From a virus: a stretch of 64,000 nt of DNA. Location: IMG/VR virus record IMGVR_UViG_3300025736_000014, positions 5,708 to 69,707 of that record, one strand, 5' to 3'. Shown piece by piece: positions 3,847-62,603 of the stretch (the stretch's first letter is position 1; each line of letters starts with the position of its first letter). Below the pieces are notes generated by a model. It saw only the letters and a program-made list of their open reading frames with translations, did no database searches and was not told the origin of the DNA. The translations under genes and the position numbers were made by a program.

Positions 3847-6549
3847 TTATTTTACCTCTTTTATCCTTTGGGCGTTTACTCTTATCCAATCTATCAAGCC
3901 AGGATTTTCATCCTTACCTGGTTGGCTGTAGTAATCCAAAAGAGCCTTTCCTGTTAACGCTCGAGATTGAGCCATACGAGCAAAATTTAAGGCGTGGAAA
4001 TAGTGGTCAGTTCCTTGCCTGGTCTCAACCCAGAAAGCAGTTTCCTCACCAGTTCTTCTGTTTTTCTTCGTAACTCTCGTTAACGATCTTAACTGGTTAT
4101 AGAAACCTGGAACTGTTTCTATGTTCCTTGGCAGCTCTACCACCTTATTTTGTATATCACTTACAAGATAATCCAGACTGATCGTCCTGTCAAGTTTAAC
4201 CTCATATTTTATATTGTCCCACCTAAAATATTCTTTGACAGTAAACTTGGATGACGGATAGGTTGCTGCAAATATCCTCCTGGGAAATTTCTCTATCAAT
4301 TCTTTTACTAACCCCTGTTCTGGCAATTTATCAACGACAGCAATTTTAATATCATAAGCTCCCATAACACTCTCAATGCTATTAGCTGGTCCGAAGAATT
4401 TGCTAACAATACCTGCCCAAACTACACGATATCCTTCGCCTTTTATTTTCTGGACAACAACAACGTTATGGACTTTACTACCAATATCAATACCAGCGAA
4501 ACAAGACTTTTTGGATTCAATAGGAATCTCATACTCTTTTTTACATGCGTTTAACTCAGAAATTTGGACAACCTGTCCTGAAACCTCGTAAGGAAGCCCA
4601 AGGTCTTGATTATAAAACTGCTGTAAAGCAGAAAAACCTATAAGTTTTGCACTCCGATATTTCTTAACAATATCAGCAATAGTTACTGATGGATTATACA
4701 TCCCATTAACTCTATATCCATGAACATCACTAGATGGGTTTTGAGCTTCCCATCTACCATCAACAATTCTTTTCATCTTCTTTTTACACTGACGGCAAAC
4801 ACAAGTTTTATTTTTATAATTAATATTCTTAAAGAAATCTAACTCTTGCCATAATCCACAATTCTTACACTTAATCTGCCATACTCTTTGATCGCTATCT
4901 AAATAGGCTTGGTGAATAGCATGCTTTGGTAGAGTAGGAGTAGAAATTTCACGTCTCCACTTTAGATCAGAAGCGTTCATACGCTTATCAATAAAAGGAA
5001 CATTCCTTTCGTCAAACCTATCTCGTTCATCTAAGAAAACACAATCAGCATCAACAGAAATAATCTGTTTCTCGTTTGTGCTACCACGAAAATAAATATC
5101 TCCTTTGCCTATCTTTTTTAAACCCAACGTCTCGACTCTTTTTCCCTGAACAGACTCAACCCGATCTTTTAAGTAGTCAGACATGTTAAGAACTGGATTA
5201 AGACGAGCTTGGACAAACTCTTGTAACTGCTTCTGGGCGGGGAATGTGTTACCAGTCCAATAAATTGATCCCTTTCTCCTAGCTAAAAATGTTCCGTTAT
5301 CTGTTCTTGGACACCAAACAATACCATCATAGTCAATATGCTTCCTATGTAACTTCCTTACAGATATATTATTAGATAGATATAATTGCATATTAGATGA
5401 TCCGTCTTTTCTTTTTACAATCCTTGTTGATATGCCAGCTAAAGAGCAAACCATAGTCCATATGTCAATTCTTTGCTTATTCTTCTGTGTAAAGGCTCTA
5501 ACTAGATTGCCTCTCTTTGTTTTTCTTCTCCACCCGTCTGCATCTAGTGATGTTTCTATAAATATATTCAATTGGTTTTTTGTTAAAGATAAAATAAATT
5601 CTATTGATGGAACTTTGTTTGGCATTACTAACCTTATTTTTCTTGCTACCTCTCCCTTAAACATAAGCTGAACACAATTAGAGTCGTTATTGGAAAGATG
5701 TTCTTTATAGCTAAGTTTGTTGAGTTTTAGACATCTTTTTATCTTCTGAACTTTATCATGATTAACTTTCTCTGATTGTGTTATACCTATTAAACTTGGT
5801 CCTATGCCTCGAATTCCTTTTCCCTGTGCTTTTGCAAAGTGTCCATCTGTCCAAACCCAAGCACATAATTCAACAAATTGATTTGAGTATGTTTTGTCCT
5901 TTGGTAAATCGGCACAAGAAACAGCACGAGGAATATATTTATCTCCAATAAACATATCTTTGGTTTGTGTAAAGTAAAAACCCTGCTTCTTATGTTTGTT
6001 GATCCACCCATCTTTTACTATCCATCTATGATTGTTAGTAACAAGTGCAGAAAACTTATTTGTCTCCAATAAAATAAGTTTAGTTTTAACCTTCTTGGTA
6101 AAAAGCTCTTTAGATTTTTTCCACTCACTCTTTCCAGTTATTTTATTCATAGTAAGTATAACTTCACCATCTCTTATCTGATTAAACCTTAACCACCCTC
6201 TTTTAGATAAAAGCTCTGTTTTTTCGTCTACGCAATAGAGTACATTCTTCCCTAGAATATCAGCAATCCACACAGCCTCAGAAATACCACGCTCAGACAA
6301 TCCCATCTGTGATGCCTTGGTATACACAATATTGTGATACTGGTCAGTATAGATTTGTACTAAATATTTCCTGTCGGAGAATTTAAGAGGTTTCCCCTTT
6401 GAGGTAAGCCAAACTGCTTTTACCCAAGTGAAATAATCAGACAACTTCTCCTTCTTGAACTTCTGCTGTGCCTTTATTAGCAGTTGCTTCTCCAGCACGG
6501 CTAGCTCTTTCTCGTTTAACTTCTGCAAGGAGCTTGAGAACGCCTTCAT
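3847..6549 (-). CDS. terL: terminase large subunit, GpA-like, intein-containing
   Basis: KASQMGLSE Walker A variant, VFLDERD Walker B, ISTPT coupling motif, CxxC..CxxC, C-terminal nuclease (GIDIG, DHYFHA). Confidence 0.9.
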   Translation of the reverse strand: MKAFSSSLQKLNEKELAVLEKQLLIKAQQKFKKEKLSDYFTWVKAVWLTSKGKPLKFSDRKYLVQIYTDQYHNIVYTKASQMGLSERGISEAVWIADILGKNVLYCVDEKTELLSKRGWLRFNQIRDGEVILTMNKITGKSEWKKSKELFTKKVKTKLILLETNKFSALVTNNHRWIVKDGWINKHKKQGFYFTQTKDMFIGDKYIPRAVSCADLPKDKTYSNQFVELCAWVWTDGHFAKAQGKGIRGIGPSLIGITQSEKVNHDKVQKIKRCLKLNKLSYKEHLSNNDSNCVQLMFKGEVARKIRLVMPNKVPSIEFILSLTKNQLNIFIETSLDADGWRRKTKRGNLVRAFTQKNKQRIDIWTMVCSLAGISTRIVKRKDGSSNMQLYLSNNISVRKLHRKHIDYDGIVWCPRTDNGTFLARRKGSIYWTGNTFPAQKQLQEFVQARLNPVLNMSDYLKDRVESVQGKRVETLGLKKIGKGDIYFRGSTNEKQIISVDADCVFLDERDRFDERNVPFIDKRMNASDLKWRREISTPTLPKHAIHQAYLDSDQRVWQIKCKNCGLWQELDFFKNINYKNKTCVCRQCKKKMKRIVDGRWEAQNPSSDVHGYRVNGMYNPSVTIADIVKKYRSAKLIGFSALQQFYNQDLGLPYEVSGQVVQISELNACKKEYEIPIESKKSCFAGIDIGSKVHNVVVVQKIKGEGYRVVWAGIVSKFFGPANSIESVMGAYDIKIAVVDKLPEQGLVKELIEKFPRRIFAATYPSSKFTVKEYFRWDNIKYEVKLDRTISLDYLVSDIQNKVVELPRNIETVPGFYNQLRSLTRVTKKNRRTGEETAFWVETRQGTDHYFHALNFARMAQSRALTGKALLDYYSQPGKDENPGLIDWIRVNAQRIKEVK
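5248..6234 (-). mobile_element. intein (329 aa) with LAGLIDADG homing endonuclease in TerL
   Basis: starts CVDEKTELL, TxxH block B (TNNH), two LAGLIDADG-like helices (AWVWTDG, TSLDADG), ends WTGN followed by Thr; exteins rejoin as NVLY/TFP. Confidence 0.92.
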
Positions 6550-34835: not shown

Positions 34836-35134
34836 GAATTTATTTCAATTTTATACTTTTCTTTAACTTTTTCTTTTACATGTCTGAGGGAAAATAAAAC
34901 AGCGTCTAAGATGACGCTACGTTTAATGGATTCTTCCTTTTCGGGATCCATCTTGGAGATTCTATTGACGAATAACTCATCCTCAAATTGCTTTATCGCC
35001 CATAGAACATCTTTCTCAGCTTGCTTTGTTAACGCTACAATAGCACCTTCTGGGGTTTTGATATTTCGACCATAAATTAAATCCGCAGCTAAACTGCGGA
35101 TGTCTTCAGGTTTGTTTGAGTTTTCGGTTTTCAC
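34832..35134 (-). CDS. hypothetical protein
   Basis: 100 aa ORF. Confidence 0.55.
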   Translation of the reverse strand: MKTENSNKPEDIRSLAADLIYGRNIKTPEGAIVALTKQAEKDVLWAIKQFEDELFVNRISKMDPEKEESIKRSVILDAVLFSLRHVKEKVKEKYKIEINS

Positions 35135-35477
35135 TTCTTAGTCCCCTAATTTTCGTTTTTAACTTATTGATTTGGGTTTGATGGTTTTCTTCTATCGTTT
35201 CTATTTTATCTATTTCTTTCATCATAGCTCTGCCTTTTTCGTTTTGTCTTATATATTGCTGGATATACATACCAAATCCGAGAAAAGACAATCTTATCGA
35301 AAAGTGTTCTCCACACATACGATCTAGCTCTACTTCAAACTGAATAAGCTTAAAGTCAAGCCAGTTATATCCTCGTTGATGAGCAAACTGTGACCAGTCG
35401 TTAGATAGTTTAACGTATCCTTTTTCCCACTCTATAAAAGTGCGATAACCGTTTTCGTCTGTATTAAAAAATTTCAT
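35106..35477 (-). CDS. hypothetical protein
   Basis: 123 aa ORF directly after the tRNA array. Confidence 0.55.
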   Translation of the reverse strand: MKFFNTDENGYRTFIEWEKGYVKLSNDWSQFAHQRGYNWLDFKLIQFEVELDRMCGEHFSIRLSFLGFGMYIQQYIRQNEKGRAMMKEIDKIETIEENHQTQINKLKTKIRGLRSENRKLKQT

Positions 35478-35480
35478 GTG

Positions 35481-35555
35481 TCAGGATGACTGGATTTGAA
35501 CCAGTGATCTCATCGTCCCAAACGACGCGCGTTGGCCAGACTACGCTACACCCTG
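35481..35555 (-). tRNA. tRNA-Pro(UGG)
   Basis: cloverleaf, loop TTTGGGA. Confidence 0.9.
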
Positions 35556-35582
35556 TTTTAGCTATTACTGTTGTTGTCTTTG

Positions 35583-35655
35583 CAAGAACGGTAAGAATCG
35601 AACTTACCCACGGGGATTTGGAGTCCCCATCGCCAGCCTTGGAACATTCGCTCTT
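35583..35655 (-). tRNA. tRNA-Trp(CCA)
   Basis: cloverleaf, loop CTCCAAA. Confidence 0.9.
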
Positions 35656-35661
35656 ATTTTG

Positions 35662-35743
35662 CGGAAGGTATAGGATTCGAACCTATGAACGGTTGCCCGT
35701 TACGGCTTAGCAAGCCGCTCCATTACCACTCTGGCAACCTTCC
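35662..35743 (-). tRNA. tRNA-Ser(GCU)
   Basis: long variable arm, loop TTGCTAA. Confidence 0.9.
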
Positions 35744-35889
35744 TAGTCAATGGCGGAAGTTTACATAAGTTACGATAGGTTTGACAGCTCATGTCTGGTT
35801 CCGCCGAGCGACTATAAGCTCTTAATTATATGCTACGCCCCAACCTATTGGGGTGTTTAAAGTAGCACATCTATCTTACTTTATTTTAG

Positions 35890-35963
35890 TACTCCTAGCA
35901 AGATTCGAACTTGCAACCTGCGGTTTCGAAGACCGACGCTCTTGTCCATTGAGCTATAGGAGC
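35890..35963 (-). tRNA. tRNA-Arg(UCG)
   Basis: loop CTTCGAA. Confidence 0.9.
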
Positions 35964-35967
35964 TTTG

Positions 35968-36040
35968 TGAGTCATATAGGTCTCGAACCTACGACAACCT
36001 CGTTAAGAGCGAGGTGCTCTACCAACTGAGCTAATGACCC
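35968..36040 (-). tRNA. tRNA-Lys(CUU)
   Basis: loop CTCTTAA. Confidence 0.92.
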
Positions 36041-36046
36041 ATTCTG

Positions 36047-36121
36047 TGAGTGCAGAGGGACTTGAACCCCCGACATTCTGCTTAAAAGGCAGACGCTCTT
36101 GACCAACTGAGCTATGCACCC
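36047..36121 (-). tRNA. tRNA-Lys(UUU)
   Basis: loop CTTTTAA. Confidence 0.92.
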
Positions 36122-36125
36122 GTTA

Positions 36126-36394
36126 TCAGAAAGTAATAAGCCAGATTCTGTTTTATGATGACATCTGTCTATGCCTTCGAACTTTAGACCTTGGTGGAAC
36201 ATCCTCAAACGGTCAATTCGGAAGTTGCTGCGACGGAGATTGCTCGTTTCACCATGCGACCTTCTAGTAGAAGGCGGCGTGCTCGTCTCTGTAGCTCTAA
36301 TCAGCGGTTTTACCCGTCTTAGGATTTAACCTAAGCAGTCTGTTCCATGCAGTCTGGACTTTCCTCTTTTTCAAGCGTCATCTCGCTTTCTGAT
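36126..36394 (-). ncRNA. rnpB: RNase P RNA, compact bacterial type (~269 nt)
   Basis: GAGGAAAGTCC, GGTGAAACG and AAACAGAATCTGGCTTA conserved blocks; P1 TCAGAAAG/CTTTCTGA. Confidence 0.9.
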
Positions 36395-36396
36395 GT

Positions 36397-36468
36397 TACC
36401 AAGGTAGGTCTCGAACCTACAATCTTGTGGCTCAGAACCACACGTGTTGCCGATTACACTACTTGGCA
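36397..36468 (-). tRNA. tRNA-Gln(CUG)
   Basis: loop TTCTGAG. Confidence 0.9.
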
Positions 36469-36469
36469 G

Positions 36470-36541
36470 TGCCTCCACAAAGAATCGAACTTTGATCCGC
36501 GACTTAGAAGGTCGCAATTCTGTCCGTTGAACTACAGAGGC
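36470..36541 (-). tRNA. tRNA-Arg(UCU)
   Basis: loop CTTCTAA. Confidence 0.9.
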
Positions 36542-36545
36542 TTTG

Positions 36546-36618
36546 TACTCTCGATAGGAATCGAACCTATGTATGCCTGATTAGGAATCAGGTGCGTTGT
36601 CCCCTACGCTACGAGAGT
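36546..36618 (-). tRNA. tRNA-Arg(CCU)
   Basis: loop TTCCTAA. Confidence 0.9.
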
Positions 36619-36624
36619 ATTTTG

Positions 36625-36696
36625 TTGGGGAGATAGGATTCGAACCTATAACCTACTCTGTATAAGAGAGTTGCTCAGCCATTGAGCTAATCCCCA
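36625..36696 (-). tRNA. tRNA-Ile(UAU)
   Basis: stem ACTCT/AGAGT, loop CTTATAC. Confidence 0.85.
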
Positions 36697-36700
36697 ATTG

Positions 36701-36775
36701 TAGGCGATGAGGGATTTGAACCCCCGACGAACGGTATGTAACACCGCCACTCTGACCAGGCTGAGTTAATCGCCT
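36701..36775 (-). tRNA. tRNA-Val(UAC)
   Basis: loop GTTACAT. Confidence 0.88.
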
Positions 36776-36779
36776 ATTG

Positions 36780-37095
36780 TGGACTTGGTGGTATTGAAAC
36801 CACGTCCAGACTATTAATTTAACATCATCTACATGTTTAGTATCCTAATGGATGCGTAAGGTATATGACACCCTCATCAGCGTTTTTGATTTTAAGCTCA
36901 AATAGCAAAAGCGTAGTTTGCGTTGGTTGGTGAAAAAAACATGCCCACAAACGAAACGATTGTTTCTTTCACGTCCTCTTTAAGTTGGGCGAGGAAACCC
37001 CTAATTGTTTTTGCAATTATGTCTTTGGACCTTTAACGATGTGTCAATCGACATGCAGATATTAAACTTGTAATCTGTCGAAACTATACAAGCCC
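36780..37095 (-). ncRNA. ssrA: tmRNA with a 38-codon tag
   Basis: 5' GGGCTTGTATAGTTTCGAC, 3' T-arm plus CAAGTCC-A acceptor with G3.U70; ATAATT-GCA resume context; tag ORF 37014-36898. Confidence 0.9.
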
Positions 37096-37198
37096 ATATG
37101 CGGCTATAAACCATATCTTACGACTTAGATTTACGCCGTTAATTCCCCTCTTGAAACCCTTACGAGTGAACAGACGCTCTTTCGAGGTAGGGACTGTG

Positions 37199-37270
37199 TA
37201 GATGAGATTGGATTCGAACCAATGATCTCCTCTGTATCAGAGAGGTACCTTACCGCTTGGCTACTCATCT
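37199..37270 (-). tRNA. tRNA-Ile(GAU)
   Basis: loop CTGATAC. Confidence 0.9.
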
Positions 37271-37305
37271 GTAGCTGAGTATAACACGGATGTAATACTT
37301 CAGCA

Positions 37306-37382
37306 TGGTGCTACTTGAAAGATTCGAACTTTCACTACTCGGGTTTTGAATCCGATCCCTCTACCAGTTGGGGTAAAGTAGC
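37306..37382 (-). tRNA. tRNA-Leu(CAA), short variable loop, CCA encoded
   Basis: loop TTCAAAA, 5-nt variable region. Confidence 0.85.
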
Positions 37383-37435
37383 AAACGGGGCACGTTCGGG
37401 ATTCTTCGGAGTTCCTCAGATTCCCCATGCCCGTG

Positions 37436-37509
37436 TGCTTCAAATAGGATTCGAACCTATACTGTGTCGGTTTTAAGCCGATTACCTCTACCAGTTGGGT
37501 TACTGAAGC
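37436..37509 (-). tRNA. tRNA-Leu(UAA), short variable loop
   Basis: loop CTTAAAA, 5-nt variable region. Confidence 0.85.
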
Positions 37510-37588
37510 ATAGTAGCCTGTCTCCCAGCTTGTAGGCTACAAACCTACGCGTGGTTTCAAGAGTAAAAACTCTTTCAGACTACTTGTG

Positions 37589-37670
37589 TGCCAAATATAG
37601 GATTCGAACCTACATACCTTACGGCACGAGTTTCTAAAACTCGCGTGTATACCTATTCCACCAATTTGGC
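37589..37670 (-). tRNA. tRNA-Leu(UAG)
   Basis: loop TTTAGAA, long variable arm. Confidence 0.9.
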
Positions 37671-37671
37671 T

Positions 37672-37748
37672 TGGTGACGATAATGGGGATCGAACCCATA
37701 GTCTCTGCCTTGAAAGGGAAGTGTGTTGGCCATTTACACTATATCGCC
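37672..37748 (-). tRNA. tRNA-Glu(UUC), CCA encoded
   Basis: loop CTTTCAA. Confidence 0.88.
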
Positions 37749-37754
37749 TTTTAG

Positions 37755-37825
37755 TAGCCCTGTAGGGAATCGAACCCTAGCCTGATGTCTGAGAAACATC
37801 TGTCCTGCCTCTAGACGACAGGGCC
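37755..37825 (-). tRNA. tRNA-Glu(CUC)
   Basis: loop TTCTCAG. Confidence 0.88.
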
Positions 37826-37826
37826 G

Positions 37827-37898
37827 TAGCGGAATCTGAGAATCGCACTCAGTTAAGACAGGTTATGAGCCTATCGAGATACTTACCTCCCACCCGCT
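37827..37898 (-). tRNA. tRNA-Met(CAU), probably initiator-like, atypical T-loop
   Basis: loop CTCATAA; purine11-pyrimidine24-type D stem; T-loop TGCGATT. Confidence 0.75.
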
Positions 37899-37907
37899 AT
37901 ATTTAAC

Positions 37908-37918
37908 TGTCAAAGAAC
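37908..37918 (-). promoter_or_regulatory. internal boxA-like antitermination site
   Basis: minus GTTCTTTGACA in a tRNA spacer. Confidence 0.55.
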
Positions 37919-37927
37919 TTAAACGGG

Positions 37928-38012
37928 CGGAAGATGTAGGAGTTGAACCTACAAGACCTTGCGGTCGCTGTTTTCAAAACAGAGGCGGTGCCAATTACGC
38001 GTGTAATCTTCC
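37928..38012 (-). tRNA. tRNA-Ser(UGA)
   Basis: loop TTTGAAA, long variable arm. Confidence 0.9.
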
Positions 38013-38017
38013 ATGTG

Positions 38018-38101
38018 TGCTGATTCTAGGTAATGCTCCTAGGTTGGCGATTAGGCTACGGGTTTACAGTCCGCTCTCCCTCTTTAGAAGACTACATCAG
38101 C
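38018..38101 (-). tRNA. tRNA-Tyr(GUA), non-canonical T-loop
   Basis: loop CTGTAAA; T-arm CTAGG-AGCATTA-CCTAG. Confidence 0.7.
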
Positions 38102-38107
38102 TTTTTG

Positions 38108-38179
38108 TTACGGAACTAGGATTTGAACCTAGAATCTGAGGGGTCAAAGTCCTCCGTGTTGCCGTTACACTATTCCGTA
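38108..38179 (-). tRNA. tRNA-Gln(UUG)
   Basis: loop CTTTGAC. Confidence 0.9.
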
Positions 38180-38184
38180 GTTTG

Positions 38185-38257
38185 TGCAAAGGATTGGAAT
38201 CGAACCAATATCTGATGTTTTTCAGACATCCGTCGTGACCAACTTGACTACCTTTAC
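38185..38257 (-). tRNA. tRNA-Phe(GAA)
   Basis: loop CTGAAAA. Confidence 0.9.
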
Positions 38258-38262
38258 ATGTG

Positions 38263-38334
38263 AGACCTGTACTGGGATCGCACCAGTGCATAACCGTTTT
38301 GCAAACAGCTGCGTTTCTCCTTCGCCAACAGGTC
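38263..38334 (-). tRNA. tRNA-Cys(GCA)
   Basis: loop TTGCAAA, U73, T-loop TGCGATC. Confidence 0.85.
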
Positions 38335-38417
38335 ATGGGGGAAGTAAAATACAATATATGTCATCTCACTTCCCAAGATCAATCCAGTAAGGCTTTAAAA
38401 CCGAACCAGTTGATTTG

Positions 38418-38491
38418 TGGACAAGATGGGAATCGAACCCATCACAGTTTGCTTGCAAAGCAATCTCGCCAGCCTTGGTACATGCTCGCCC
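38418..38491 (-). tRNA. tRNA-Ala(UGC)
   Basis: loop TTTGCAA, G3.U70. Confidence 0.9.
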
Positions 38492-38499
38492 AATTTGTG

Positions 38500-38568
38500 T
38501 TGCGATAGTGGGAGTCGAACCTACTTGCAACTGATTATGATTCAGTGCCTCTACCCAAGATTATCGCA
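38500..38568 (-). tRNA. tRNA-Met(CAU), elongator-like, reduced D-arm (69 nt)
   Basis: stem ACTGA/TCAGT, loop ATCATAA. Confidence 0.65.
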
Positions 38569-38573
38569 GTTTG

Positions 38574-38647
38574 CGGCTTGTACGGGATTTGAACCCGTGA
38601 TTTCTACCTTGACAGGGTAGTGTCATACCAGACTAGACTAACAAACC
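38574..38647 (-). tRNA. tRNA-Asp(GUC)
   Basis: loop CTGTCAA, G73. Confidence 0.9.
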
Positions 38648-38653
38648 ATTCTG

Positions 38654-38724
38654 CACTCACGCTAGGATTCGAACCTAAATCTTCTCCTTAACAGGGAGTC
38701 GTTCTGCCGTTGAACTACACGAGT
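38654..38724 (-). tRNA. tRNA-Asn(GUU)
   Basis: loop CTGTTAA. Confidence 0.9.
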
Positions 38725-38725
38725 A

Positions 38726-38801
38726 TGGAGCTATATGTTGGACTCGAACCAACCACCTTCTGATTACAAAACAGATGCTCTACCAGATGAGCTAATACAG
38801 C
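38726..38801 (-). tRNA. tRNA-Thr(UGU), CCA encoded
   Basis: loop TTTGTAA. Confidence 0.92.
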
Positions 38802-38802
38802 T

Positions 38803-38814
38803 TGGAGCAAGATA
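38803..38814 (-). repeat. duplicated 3' end of tRNA-Gly, downstream of the HNH gene
   Basis: GAGCAAGATA at 38805-38814 and 39312-39321; this copy carries the CCA. Confidence 0.75.
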
Positions 38815-38815
38815 C

Positions 38816-39277
38816 TTATTCTTTCCAAGATTCTTGCCTTAACATAGTACCGATTGTACTATATGCTAATTTATATTTCTTTGCTAATCCCCTATGAGTC
38901 AAACTATAATCTTTAGAATAATCTTCTCTAATTTTTCTTACTAATTTCCAAGTTAGTTTGTGACATCCTTGCTTTTCTCCAGTTGCTCTATTACTTCTAT
39001 TTGGCAATCTATGTCTTTTTTTCGACATAGCATCGGCAGTATTTTCTTTCATGCTACCGAGAAACAAGTGTTTCGGATTAACACAAAGTCTATTATCACA
39101 CTTATGACAGACAACTTTATTTTTAGGAATTTTTCCAAAGTGTAAATTCCAACTTAATCTATGAGAGTCAACAGTTTTACCATCTACCTTTATACAGCCA
39201 TATCCAGTACCTCTATTGGCACCAGTCCATAACCAACAGGATTTAGTTTTATTAACTTTACTCCAAAATCTATCCAT
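38816..39277 (-). CDS. free-standing HNH homing endonuclease
   Basis: FWSKV..CWLWTG..GYG..HRLSW..VCHKCDN..CVNPKHL. Confidence 0.92.
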
Positions 39278-39312
39278 AAATAAAATAAATTATTTTATAA
39301 AAGTTAAATATG

Positions 39313-39383
39313 AGCAAGATAGGAGAATCGAACTCCTGTCAACTGATTGGAAATCAGTAGTTAAGCCACTTAACTAATCTTGC
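39313..39383 (-). tRNA. tRNA-Gly(UCC)
   Basis: loop TTTCCAA, U73. Confidence 0.9.
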
Positions 39384-39460
39384 TGGGGTAGTCGATGGGA
39401 TTCGAACCCATGTGGGTCACTTCACAGGCAACCTTCTGAGACCTCTCGAATACGACCACC
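39384..39460 (-). tRNA. tRNA-His(GUG), G-1 and CCA encoded
   Basis: loop CTGTGAA, G-1:C73. Confidence 0.9.
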
Positions 39461-39662: not shown

Positions 39663-39692
39663 AGTATACAAAAGTGTCGACACACTTGTCAA
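39663..39692 (-). promoter_or_regulatory. sigma70 promoter of the RNA operon
   Basis: TTGACA-N18-TATACT, with palindrome GTGTCGACAC in the spacer. Confidence 0.8.
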
Positions 39693-54420: not shown

Positions 54421-54819
54421 ATGATTGAAGTAAAAAAAGCTGAGGATGCCATTAAGTTGGCTAAGCATAAAATAAGAAGTTGGGATAAAGAACATCTTAT
54501 TGGTCTATATCTCGATTCAAAAAACAACCTCAAACATTCTGAGTTAATTAGTATGGGCTTATTAGATAGCACACTGTTAGCACCCAGAGAAATACTACAG
54601 CCAGCAATCCTGTATAGCTCGGCTGGTTTTGTGTTGTTACATAATCACCCAAGTGGTGATGTTAAACCATCTAAAGAGGACATAGCAGAAACTTTAAGAA
54701 TAGAAAAAGCCTCTAAGATCATGGGAATTTTGTTTATCGACCATATTATATTCTCTAAGGGTAAAATTTATTACTCTATGAGGGCAAATAAAAAGATGAA
54801 GGGAGGTGAAAAGCTATGA
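54421..54819 (+). CDS. radC: RadC-like JAB domain protein
   Basis: KEH..YLD, PREI, HNHPSGD..PSKED, DHII. Confidence 0.9.
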   Translation: MIEVKKAEDAIKLAKHKIRSWDKEHLIGLYLDSKNNLKHSELISMGLLDSTLLAPREILQPAILYSSAGFVLLHNHPSGDVKPSKEDIAETLRIEKASKIMGILFIDHIIFSKGKIYYSMRANKKMKGGEKL

Positions 54820-62093: not shown

Positions 62094-62603
62094 ATGGATA
62101 AATCAAAGAAAGTAAGGGAGTTTTTGAGAGAGAGTAATGCTATTGAGGGAGTTTTTGATGAGGATAGTTTAAAACAAGCGGAGATTGCTTGGAAGTATTT
62201 AGAAGAACAGAAGGAATTAGACATCCAAGTTATTTTGAGAACCCATAGAATCCTTATGCTTAACCAGCGAATTAGAGGATTTGAAAGGGGATATTTTAGG
62301 AAACGACCTGTTTTTATAGGTGGTAAAGAAGCCTTACATTATTCAGAAATCAGGGGTGCGATTAAAAGTTGGCTCAAGGATGTTGAAACCTCAATTGAAA
62401 TGCCTGGTAAGAACGGCAAACATATTCAACTAGACCATATTACTTTTGAGAAGATTCACCCGTTTATTGATGGCAATGGCAGAATCGGTAGGATATTTAT
62501 GAACTGGCAAAGGAAGAAAGCGGGATTGCCAATACTCGTTATTAAAGAAGCAGAAAAACAAAAGTATTATGATTGGTTTACTAACACCCTAAAGGGAGAT
62601 TAA
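62094..62603 (+). CDS. Fic domain protein
   Basis: HPFIDGNGRIGR; SNAIEG. Confidence 0.92.
   Translation: MDKSKKVREFLRESNAIEGVFDEDSLKQAEIAWKYLEEQKELDIQVILRTHRILMLNQRIRGFERGYFRKRPVFIGGKEALHYSEIRGAIKSWLKDVETSIEMPGKNGKHIQLDHITFEKIHPFIDGNGRIGRIFMNWQRKKAGLPILVIKEAEKQKYYDWFTNTLKGD

Follow-up and report, generated by a model that had tools for sequence, protein, structure and literature searches.

A phage tRNA array with embedded RNase P RNA and tmRNA, possibly tuned to a patescibacterial host with few wobble modifications

Why would a phage carry tRNA genes for nearly every amino acid, and what determines which anticodons it carries? The question is raised by a dense tRNA array in the IMG/VR virus record IMGVR_UViG_3300025736_000014, of which positions 5,708 to 69,707 were analysed; this whole stretch of 64,000 nucleotides is called the window here, and coordinates are given within it unless another sequence is named. 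The array occupies 35480-39459, with all of its genes on the minus strand, and embedded among the tRNAs are genes for an RNase P RNA (36121-36394) and a transfer-messenger RNA (tmRNA; 36777-37095), both identified with Rfam. The array belongs to a tailed phage of ~100 kb from a salt lake and is plausibly a single operon. On balance, we lean towards the view that it is tuned to a patescibacterial host (Candidate Phyla Radiation, CPR) with a reduced wobble-modification repertoire. The link to this host rests on the portal protein, the RNase P RNA, a tRNA-Ser and codon usage, all of which would point to a lineage; the exact host is unproven.

The record is linear, 76.7 kb long and ~74% complete, and the phage sequence has a GC content of ~0.36. 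The identical sequence is also present in contigs from no fewer than four other salt-lake samples. A portal protein (PF04860, E=1.3e-26) and a terminase with GpA ATPase and nuclease domains are encoded on the same contig, which, together with its status as an IMG/VR virus record, places the cluster in a virus genome. ARAGORN at default settings called 26 tRNA genes in the array and none elsewhere in the 76.7-kb record. Rfam gathering scores (GA) were reached by 25 tRNAs, namely 24 of these 26 and a CAU tRNA at 38500-38568, with Ala-UGC (27 bits) and Trp falling just below the threshold. The locus thus holds 26 firm genes, or 30 with candidates, in 3,980 bp, within the definition of a viral tRNA gene cluster by Morgado and Vicente (2019), which asks for 15 or more genes and a density of 2 or more per kb. 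A sequence-only reading of the window had counted 30 tRNAs for all 20 amino acids; 18 amino acids are firmly covered, while Met, Tyr and Ser-UCN depend on weak calls. Met is covered by one gene of 29.2 bits and one of 22.1 bits, Tyr by a gene that no program called, and Ser-UCN by a sub-threshold Ser-UGA gene. Anticodon loops have seven nucleotides with U33 in all 30, and CCA is encoded in just four genes, the number given in that reading; they are His, Thr, Glu-UUC and Leu-CAA. The RNase P RNA and the tmRNA do not figure in its entry.

The anticodons follow a simple scheme. Within the phage set, U34 is the sole wobble base of the four-codon boxes (seven firm, eight with the weak Ser-UGA), both U34 and C34 are present in the five split boxes ending in a purine (NNR; Leu, Gln, Lys, Glu and Arg), and boxes ending in a pyrimidine (NNY) are read by G34. 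Isoleucine has a GAU and a UAU tRNA, the latter (36624-36696; ARAGORN, 61.6 bits) with the loop CUUAUAC that is also found in patescibacterial Ile-UAU. The only CGN reader of the array is Arg-UCG (35889-35963; ARAGORN, 68.8 bits); there are no A34 tRNAs, and hence no Arg-ACG, in the record. CAU is the only anticodon that occurs twice. The U34-only four-codon boxes, the split-box pairs, Ile-UAU and the choice of Arg-UCG over ACG had been read from the sequence and were confirmed, the split-box pairs by ARAGORN, and their consequence is supported: the set avoids the TadA-requiring Arg-ACG, does not rely on TilS, and has C34 partners that make U34 modification of the MnmE/MnmG type unnecessary.

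How much of this scheme is peculiar to the window can be judged from other arrays called with the same program: those of phages T5, KVP40, P59, Bxz1 and Lb338-1, two metagenomic viral arrays (G006 and G007) and two GC-rich ones (G008 and G009). U34 is found in 29 of the 35 four-box tRNAs of T5, KVP40, P59, G006 and G007, the six exceptions being four Arg-ACG, one Ser-GGA and one Gly-GCC, and wobble bases are mixed in the four-codon boxes of the GC-rich Bxz1. In low-GC phage arrays, then, boxes with U34 alone are what one normally finds; they are not diagnostic and carry no special message, although they had headed the description in the sequence-only reading. The same tally favours a simpler account, in which this is an ordinary compacted array of an AT-rich phage with the fewest genes that cover the code, and Arg-UCG and Ile-UAU are incidental and unrelated to host enzymes. 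It gains from G007, where U34 and C34 are paired in four of the five NNR boxes (five of five in the window array), from eight viral clusters with all 20 isotypes that have already been described (PMC6409571), and from the presence of Ile-UAU in Lb338-1 and in GC-rich viral contigs. We nevertheless consider it unlikely. Wherever a comparator has a CGN reader, that reader is Arg-ACG; this applies to all such low-GC arrays (KVP40, P59, G006 and G007) and to the GC-rich Bxz1, no CGN reader having been found by ARAGORN in T5. Furthermore, CAU tRNAs without Ile-UAU are found in T5, KVP40, Bxz1, G006 and G007, and neither CAU nor UAU in P59, so that among the arrays compared only the window array replaces both lysidine-CAU and Arg-ACG. 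These replacements coincide with enzyme losses in the lineage indicated by the portal, RNase P RNA and tRNA-Ser. What distinguishes the window array is thus Arg-UCG in place of ACG, together with Ile-UAU, C34 partners in all five NNR boxes, an absence of duplicates (CAU apart), scarce CCA, and the embedded RNase P RNA and tmRNA.

The lineage in question was indicated by the portal. A profile built from five portal sequences was scanned over 185,579 prokaryote species, one genome each, and gave three matches, all in metagenome-assembled genomes (MAGs) of Patescibacteria. The portal of MAG G012 is 54% identical over its full length and lies on a 10.9-kb contig with a GC content of 0.34; those of G010 and G011 are 35% and 32% identical. 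We refer to the order of G012 (genomes G012-G072) as the candidate host order. A DegT-like aminotransferase used as a host-search query over species genomes found nothing. Three features of the RNase P RNA are common to the window and to all five copies compared from this order: GAGGAAAGTCCAGACTGCA, its P4 partner CTGGCTTA and an L15 that lacks GGU (AAG..GTNTAAAG). The window RNA is 58-61% identical to copies from the order, compared with 51-55% to other viral copies. The 19-mer among these shared strings occurs in ten of 401 sampled Patescibacteria, with six of these among the ~16 sampled members of the order, and in none of 28 RNase P loci from IMG/VR. When the array was searched by BLAST against the same 401 genomes, nine or ten of the 14 with strong matches belonged to the order, through tRNA-Ser-GCU (35661-35743; ARAGORN, 59.7 bits), which is 83-87% identical to its counterparts there.

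Codon usage gives a similar picture: relative synonymous codon usage (RSCU) of the phage correlates with that of the candidate order at r=0.90, GC content at third positions (GC3) is 0.30 versus 0.32, and AUA is used 22 versus 32 times per 1000 codons. This bears directly on classical codon compensation, the provision of tRNAs for codons that a phage uses more than its host does, which one paper gives as the most widely accepted general explanation of phage tRNAs (PMC10264068). An AT-rich phage does have many A-ending codons, and these are read by U34 tRNAs. However, the array covers every box, with G34 and C34 readers included, and not biased codons alone; the most frequent phage codon is NNU and not NNA in all but one of the eight four-codon boxes; and RSCU and GC3 leave little to compensate. 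Compensation was rejected as the main explanation on account of the matching codon usage, and we consider it highly improbable here.

Enzyme models were searched in 61 or 41 genomes of the candidate order. No genome had TilS (TIGR02432) or TadA (NF008113) above cut-off (0/61 for each); the TadA model mostly had no match, apart from a few sub-threshold deaminase matches of up to 82 bits, and those weak TilS matches whose coordinates were cross-checked coincide with MnmA genes. MnmG, MnmE and TrhP were each above cut-off in 0/41 and TrhO in 3/41. MnmA, which served as the positive control, was above cut-off in 38/41, so the MAGs are complete enough for the absences to mean something. The modification-poor CPR host that had been proposed from the sequence is thus backed by the portal, by the RNase P RNA and by an order without TilS, TadA, MnmE and MnmG, while the link between phage and host stays indirect. 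The term modification-independent, which had been applied to the set, is too strong, given that the candidate hosts keep MnmA.

The tRNAs of the order are in keeping with this loss of enzymes. A full-length match to an Ile-UAU gene is present in 56/61 genomes, with anticodon UAU at 30/30 loci that were fetched, and the anticodon at fetched Arg loci is GCG, not ACG, also in 30/30. G012 itself has Arg-GCG and Arg-UCG, Ile-GAU and Ile-UAU, and two CAU genes (one of them initiator-like); U34 and C34 are paired in its Gln, Glu, Lys and Leu boxes, and its four-codon boxes contain G34 and C34 isoacceptors as well. Relative to the host-type set, the phage set in effect omits the four-codon-box isoacceptors with G34 or C34. 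As a by-product, we may have come upon something new: an entire order of Patescibacteria that, judging from these gene searches, would do without TilS, TadA and MnmE/MnmG and use Ile-UAU and Arg-GCG. A literature search combining Patescibacteria with TilS or lysidine returned no relevant paper among its top-ranked matches, and no paper was found on a whole bacterial order using Ile-UAU and inosine-free CGN decoding, or on a phage kit of this type.

Several observations weigh against the host-tuned reading. The portal matches in MAGs are binned phage contigs rather than integrated prophages or CRISPR spacers, and the closest is only 54% identical. In the candidate order CCA is encoded by almost every tRNA gene, and the tmRNA tags of the order have 14-15 residues, are of the AEKAFVPAMAYVNA type and differ from the phage tag; for these reasons the true host may belong to some other lineage. 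Some 45% of sampled Patescibacteria have TilS (90/201, a tally that includes G223), among them G010 and G011 (182-184 bits), and TilS loss is thus specific to part of the phylum. Of the known carriers of Ile-UAU, Lb338-1 is a phage of a TilS-bearing host, and the GC-rich viral contigs are G008 and G009. Arg-ACG is present in one tRNA array binned with G012 (contig C114), despite the absence of TadA from the order. In a complete relative of 103 kb, whose portal is 55% identical, Gly-UCC and Pro-UGG are the sole tRNA genes and there is no RNase P RNA; the array is therefore not characteristic of the family. Finally, four of the 30 genes are weak and carry the claim of completeness.

C114 (L071) is one of three short, dense tRNA-array contigs in G012, the others being C70 (L072) and C107 (L060), and all three are probably phage-derived. 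C70 mostly lacks CCA, like the window array. Neither an RNase P RNA nor a tmRNA was found on these small contigs, and their tRNAs are not close to those of the window. Searches for relatives of the array itself gave generic single-tRNA matches only (megablast and blastn against 50,697 phage records), its neighbouring exonuclease used as an anchor gene found nothing in IMG/VR, and relatives of the portal in IMG/VR do not share the array.

In the host-tuned reading, to which we return, expression would begin from a promoter-like site at ~39.69 kb and yield one precursor. The candidate promoter, of sigma-70-like form TTGACA-18-TATACT (39663-39692, minus strand), lies ~200 nt upstream of the first tRNA and agrees with 11/12 consensus positions, a consensus match alone. 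No terminator-like hairpin was found within the array on its strand; the first one downstream in the hairpin scan is at 35081-35101 (minus strand), after an open reading frame (ORF) at 35106-35477. With a promoter-like site upstream and no such hairpin before 35101, a single operon is plausible. The 5′ ends would be cut by RNase P, with the catalytic RNA contributed by the phage and, in its lack of the CCA-binding GGU, fitting CCA-less precursors, while host enzymes would trim the 3′ ends and add CCA, and host synthetases would charge the products. A CCA-adding enzyme, RnpA, SmpB, a synthetase and a tRNA ligase or nuclease were sought with Pfam or PHROGs among ~50 ORFs and none was found, and the kit therefore still leans on host proteins.

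Decoding would then proceed in a host lineage that has lost TilS, TadA, MnmE/MnmG and the 5-hydroxyuridine (ho5U) route and has kept MnmA. AUA would be read by Ile-UAU in place of lysidine-CAU, and CGN by Arg-UCG in place of inosine-ICG. With MnmA retained, U34 in candidate hosts probably carries 2-thiouridine (s2U); because it would carry s2U at most, C34 partners would cover NNG in the split boxes and the U34 tRNAs NNA. In the four-codon boxes a single U34 tRNA, probably unmodified at C5, would read NNA and NNG and may read NNU and NNC by superwobble. The counts for TrhP (0/41) and TrhO (3/41) lend indirect support to an unmodified U34, and unmodified U34 of Lactobacillus casei tRNA-Val reportedly reads four ways (PMC11571807). 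Should U34 not read NNY, host G34 tRNAs must do so, also for the predominant NNU codons. The benefit would be extra or independent decoding capacity in a host of ~0.8 Mb that expresses a phage genome ~1/8 the size of its own and apparently has single-copy tRNA genes (G012 tRNA list, with phage-like arrays set aside). A more ambitious version is that the translation-RNA kit has co-evolved with a clade without lysidine, inosine, 5-substituted uridines (xm5U) and ho5U, and that the phage decodes its whole genome with its own tRNAs by superwobble of unmodified U34, largely independently of the host pool; we put this forward tentatively and would sooner doubt it than rely on it. The related claim of the sequence-only reading, that the set by itself reads all 61 sense codons, is overstated: it hinges on the four weak genes and on the capacity of U34 to read four ways.

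The same completeness can be read in another way, as a replacement or counter-defence pool that sustains translation once host tRNAs have been destroyed by an anticodon nuclease of phage or host. The set is more complete and less redundant than supplementation needs, the codon usage of phage and candidate host makes compensation unnecessary, and the T and D loops of several tRNAs are atypical and could evade tRNA-targeting enzymes; for other phages the replacement hypothesis is established (PMC10264068). Set against this are anticodon loops that are canonical and the lack of a tRNA nuclease, ligase or repair enzyme in the ~50 scanned ORFs, a weak absence in a record that is ~74% complete. Such a pool had also been suggested from the sequence, and direct evidence for it did not emerge. 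We judge it quite improbable as the principal role; it is compatible with tuning to a modification-poor host.

The RNase P RNA is of reduced class A, with a length of 274 nt. Its score is marginal (RF00010, 100.8 bits versus GA 100), and the match spans the full model, positions 1-367, with 43 and 24 consensus positions deleted; the deleted stretches would correspond to P13/P14 and P18. L15 has AGUU where GGU would be. The genes for RNase P RNA in the candidate order score 84-98 bits on the same model. The phage gene sits flush between tRNA-Gln(CUG) (36395-36468; ARAGORN, 59.9 bits), which it abuts, and tRNA-Lys(UUU) (36046-36121; ARAGORN, 72 bits). A scan of IMG/VR for the conserved region I (CR-I) motif gave 28 loci, five of which lie within tRNA arrays and encode reduced RNase P RNAs of 269-321 nt scoring 136-208 bits (G005:305811-306131, G006:10407-10724, G007:15664-15932, G008:32277-32583 and G009:38585-38898). 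Among these five contigs are a genome of 168 kb that has terminal repeats and a record of 463 kb whose completeness is rated 100%. G005-G009 have CCA in nearly every tRNA and all five keep the L15 GGU, which binds CCA; the window array has neither, so ribozyme and substrates here look matched. The copies of G005-G009 and that of the window may form a viral RNase P RNA family, and no paper was found on phage-encoded RNase P RNA or on such a family. The string ACAGAGACGAG is common to all six.

The three GC-rich arrays in this group, G008, G009 and G005 (GC 0.55-0.63), show an odd selection: in the 20-kb stretches considered, their tRNAs are restricted to GNN codons (Val, Ala, Asp, Glu and Gly), as U34, C34 and G34 isoacceptors, and to Cys; G008 and G009 also hold an Ile-UAU with a long variable arm and a tmRNA.

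The window tmRNA is 319 nt long and lacks CCA at its 3′ end. ARAGORN did not call it at default settings, and Rfam places it well above threshold (RF00023, 98.8 bits versus GA 47). Read by hand from the conserved GCA, its resume frame is open for 38 codons and ends in ...NANYAFAI, giving a predicted 38-residue tag. As a host marker the tmRNA was rejected, the tags of the candidate order being unrelated to it.

The four weak tRNA genes deserve separate consideration. The candidate initiator-like tRNA-Met(CAU) at 37826-37898 was called by ARAGORN at -ps80 only and scores 22.1 bits with Rfam; it has an A11:U24 pair, a T loop UGCGAUU and an irregular acceptor stem. With default settings ARAGORN calls a comparable initiator-like gene, with the T loop UGCAAUU, in G007, an unrelated viral array. 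A second tRNA(CAU), at 38500-38568, is borderline (29.2 bits versus GA 29, no ARAGORN call) and probably an elongator Met, with A32 in its loop. The candidate tRNA-Ser(UGA) at 37928-38012 matches the Rfam tRNA-Sec model at 24.4 bits; its acceptor, anticodon, variable and T arms are sound, and three extra bases precede the D stem. The candidate tRNA-Tyr(GUA) at 38018-38101, recognised by hand reading and folding, has a 6-bp acceptor stem, a long variable arm and the T loop AGCAUUA. T loops with G55 (UGCGAUU, AGCAUUA, UGCAAUU and UGCGAGU) recur in tRNAs of unrelated phage arrays. Because they are present in the Tyr genes of G006 and G007 too, the weak window genes may be real but atypical tRNAs. 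In the window Met (37826-37898) and Tyr genes the D loop also lacks GG, and the combination of G55 with a missing D-loop GG may represent an altered elbow contact rather than decay. Contigs from four more DNA runs were identical and offered no informative variants for covariation in the weak tRNAs.

A different peculiarity is seen in tRNA-Trp(CCA) (35582-35655; ARAGORN, Rfam 28.9 bits with the Sec model only) and tRNA-Ala(UGC) (38417-38487, with G3:U70), both called by ARAGORN and both under the Rfam tRNA threshold: they have an unusual D arm, CCAAGGCTGGCGA, in common. This shared arm suggests that one of the two was derived from the other by changes of anticodon and acceptor.

The remaining genes, all called by ARAGORN and given here with Rfam scores, follow one another from the promoter end. 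The first is tRNA-His(GUG), with G-1 and CCA encoded (39384-39459; 43.8 bits), followed by Gly(UCC) (39312-39383; 63.6 bits). The array is then interrupted by an ORF for an HNH homing endonuclease of 153 residues (38816-39277; phrog_1872 E=4.6e-32, phrog_6254 E=1.1e-26). Beyond it lie Thr(UGU) with CCA (38726-38801; 62.7 bits), Asn(GUU) (38653-38724; 60.8 bits), Asp(GUC) (38573-38647; 66.4 bits), Cys(GCA) (38262-38334; 46 bits), Phe(GAA) (38184-38257; 63.9 bits) and Gln(UUG) (38107-38179; 62.7 bits). The central part holds Glu(CUC) (37754-37825; 57.4 bits), Glu(UUC) with CCA (37672-37748; 61.1 bits), Leu(UAG) (37588-37670; 59 bits), Leu(UAA) (37435-37509; 54.1 bits), Leu(CAA) with CCA (37306-37382; 54.4 bits) and Ile(GAU) (37198-37270; 68.6 bits). 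Downstream of the tmRNA are Val(UAC) (36700-36775; 56 bits), Arg(CCU) (36545-36618; 65.7 bits) and Arg(UCU) (36469-36541; 57.4 bits), and on the far side of the RNase P RNA are Lys(CUU) (35967-36040; 66.4 bits) and, last in the array, Pro(UGG) (35480-35555; 60.8 bits), which has the only G37 of the set.

Five longer spacers on the minus strand (35744-35888, 37096-37197, 37383-37434, 37510-37587 and 38335-38416) form stable hairpins with minimum free energies of -24 to -41 kcal/mol. None of them matches an Rfam family; on the strength of these predicted folds they could be processing signals or small RNAs.

Elsewhere, the phage contig encodes many glycosyltransferases, and strong AGGAGGTGA-type ribosome-binding sites precede many of its genes. 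An ORF of the Fic/DOC family, a RadC-like JAB ORF and a large terminase of 900 residues lie at 62094-62603, 54421-54819 and 3847-6549 of the window, respectively; the ATPase domain of the terminase begins only at residue 436. A metallophosphoesterase ORF is split by a LAGLIDADG-like domain (L053:395-1912).

Codon bias and evasion of tRNA-cleaving defences are the usual explanations of phage tRNA arrays. The wider interest of the locus is that phage anticodon choice appears to track the wobble-modifying enzymes that a host lineage has kept. If this is true, the decoding chemistry of a host can be read from the tRNA repertoire of its phage, which would give host prediction a new clue. An uncultured order without TilS, TadA and MnmE/MnmG provides natural cases for studying accurate reading of AUA, CGN and split boxes. 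A further addition is a compact RNase P RNA of 274 nt that appears to be matched to CCA-less precursors, and the array also offers a natural candidate set of 30 tRNAs for reconstituted translation systems.

Among known systems, the counter-defence tRNAs of van den Berg et al. (2023; PMC10264068) are alike in that a full set could stand in for a host pool that has been depleted; they differ in that anticodon-loop deviations and nuclease or repair genes were not seen in the window. The phage tRNA gene clusters reported by Morgado and Vicente (2019; PMC6409571), some of them with all 20 isotypes, resemble the window array in density (6.5-7.5 tRNA genes per kb here), in belonging to a tailed, apparently virulent phage of ~100 kb, in having an HNH homing endonuclease in the array and in near-complete coverage. 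The window array differs from them in its embedded RNase P RNA and tmRNA, its lack of Arg-ACG and of lysidine dependence, its C34 partners in all five NNR boxes and its CCA in four genes only, and the predicted patescibacterial host falls outside the five host phyla and 34 genera of that survey.

The arrays of T5, KVP40 and P59 share with the window U34 as the only, or nearly only, four-box wobble base, G34 in NNY boxes and few duplicates. Unlike the window array, they mostly lack C34 partners and encode CCA in nearly all genes, and an RNase P RNA was not seen in them. Huge phages are said to carry tRNAs and tmRNAs (reportedly Al-Shayeb et al. 2020), and the window likewise combines a tRNA array with a tmRNA, in a phage genome of only ~100 kb. 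The five other viral RNase P RNAs differ from the window copy, which is of the patescibacterial sequence type and has no GGU.

The closest parallels in decoding logic are cellular. Minimal superwobble decoding sets are found in Mollicutes and plastids; AUA is decoded without TilS by tRNA-Ile(UAU) in Mycoplasma mobile, and CGN without TadA in some Mollicutes. Such sets and the window alike provide a single U34 tRNA for each four-codon box, with Ile-UAU to read AUA and Arg-UCG to read CGN, a scheme that needs neither inosine nor lysidine. The window set differs in being carried by a phage, where it would operate alongside a host pool with G34 and C34 isoacceptors, and in keeping C34 partners throughout the NNR boxes, whereas minimal cellular sets have usually lost them.

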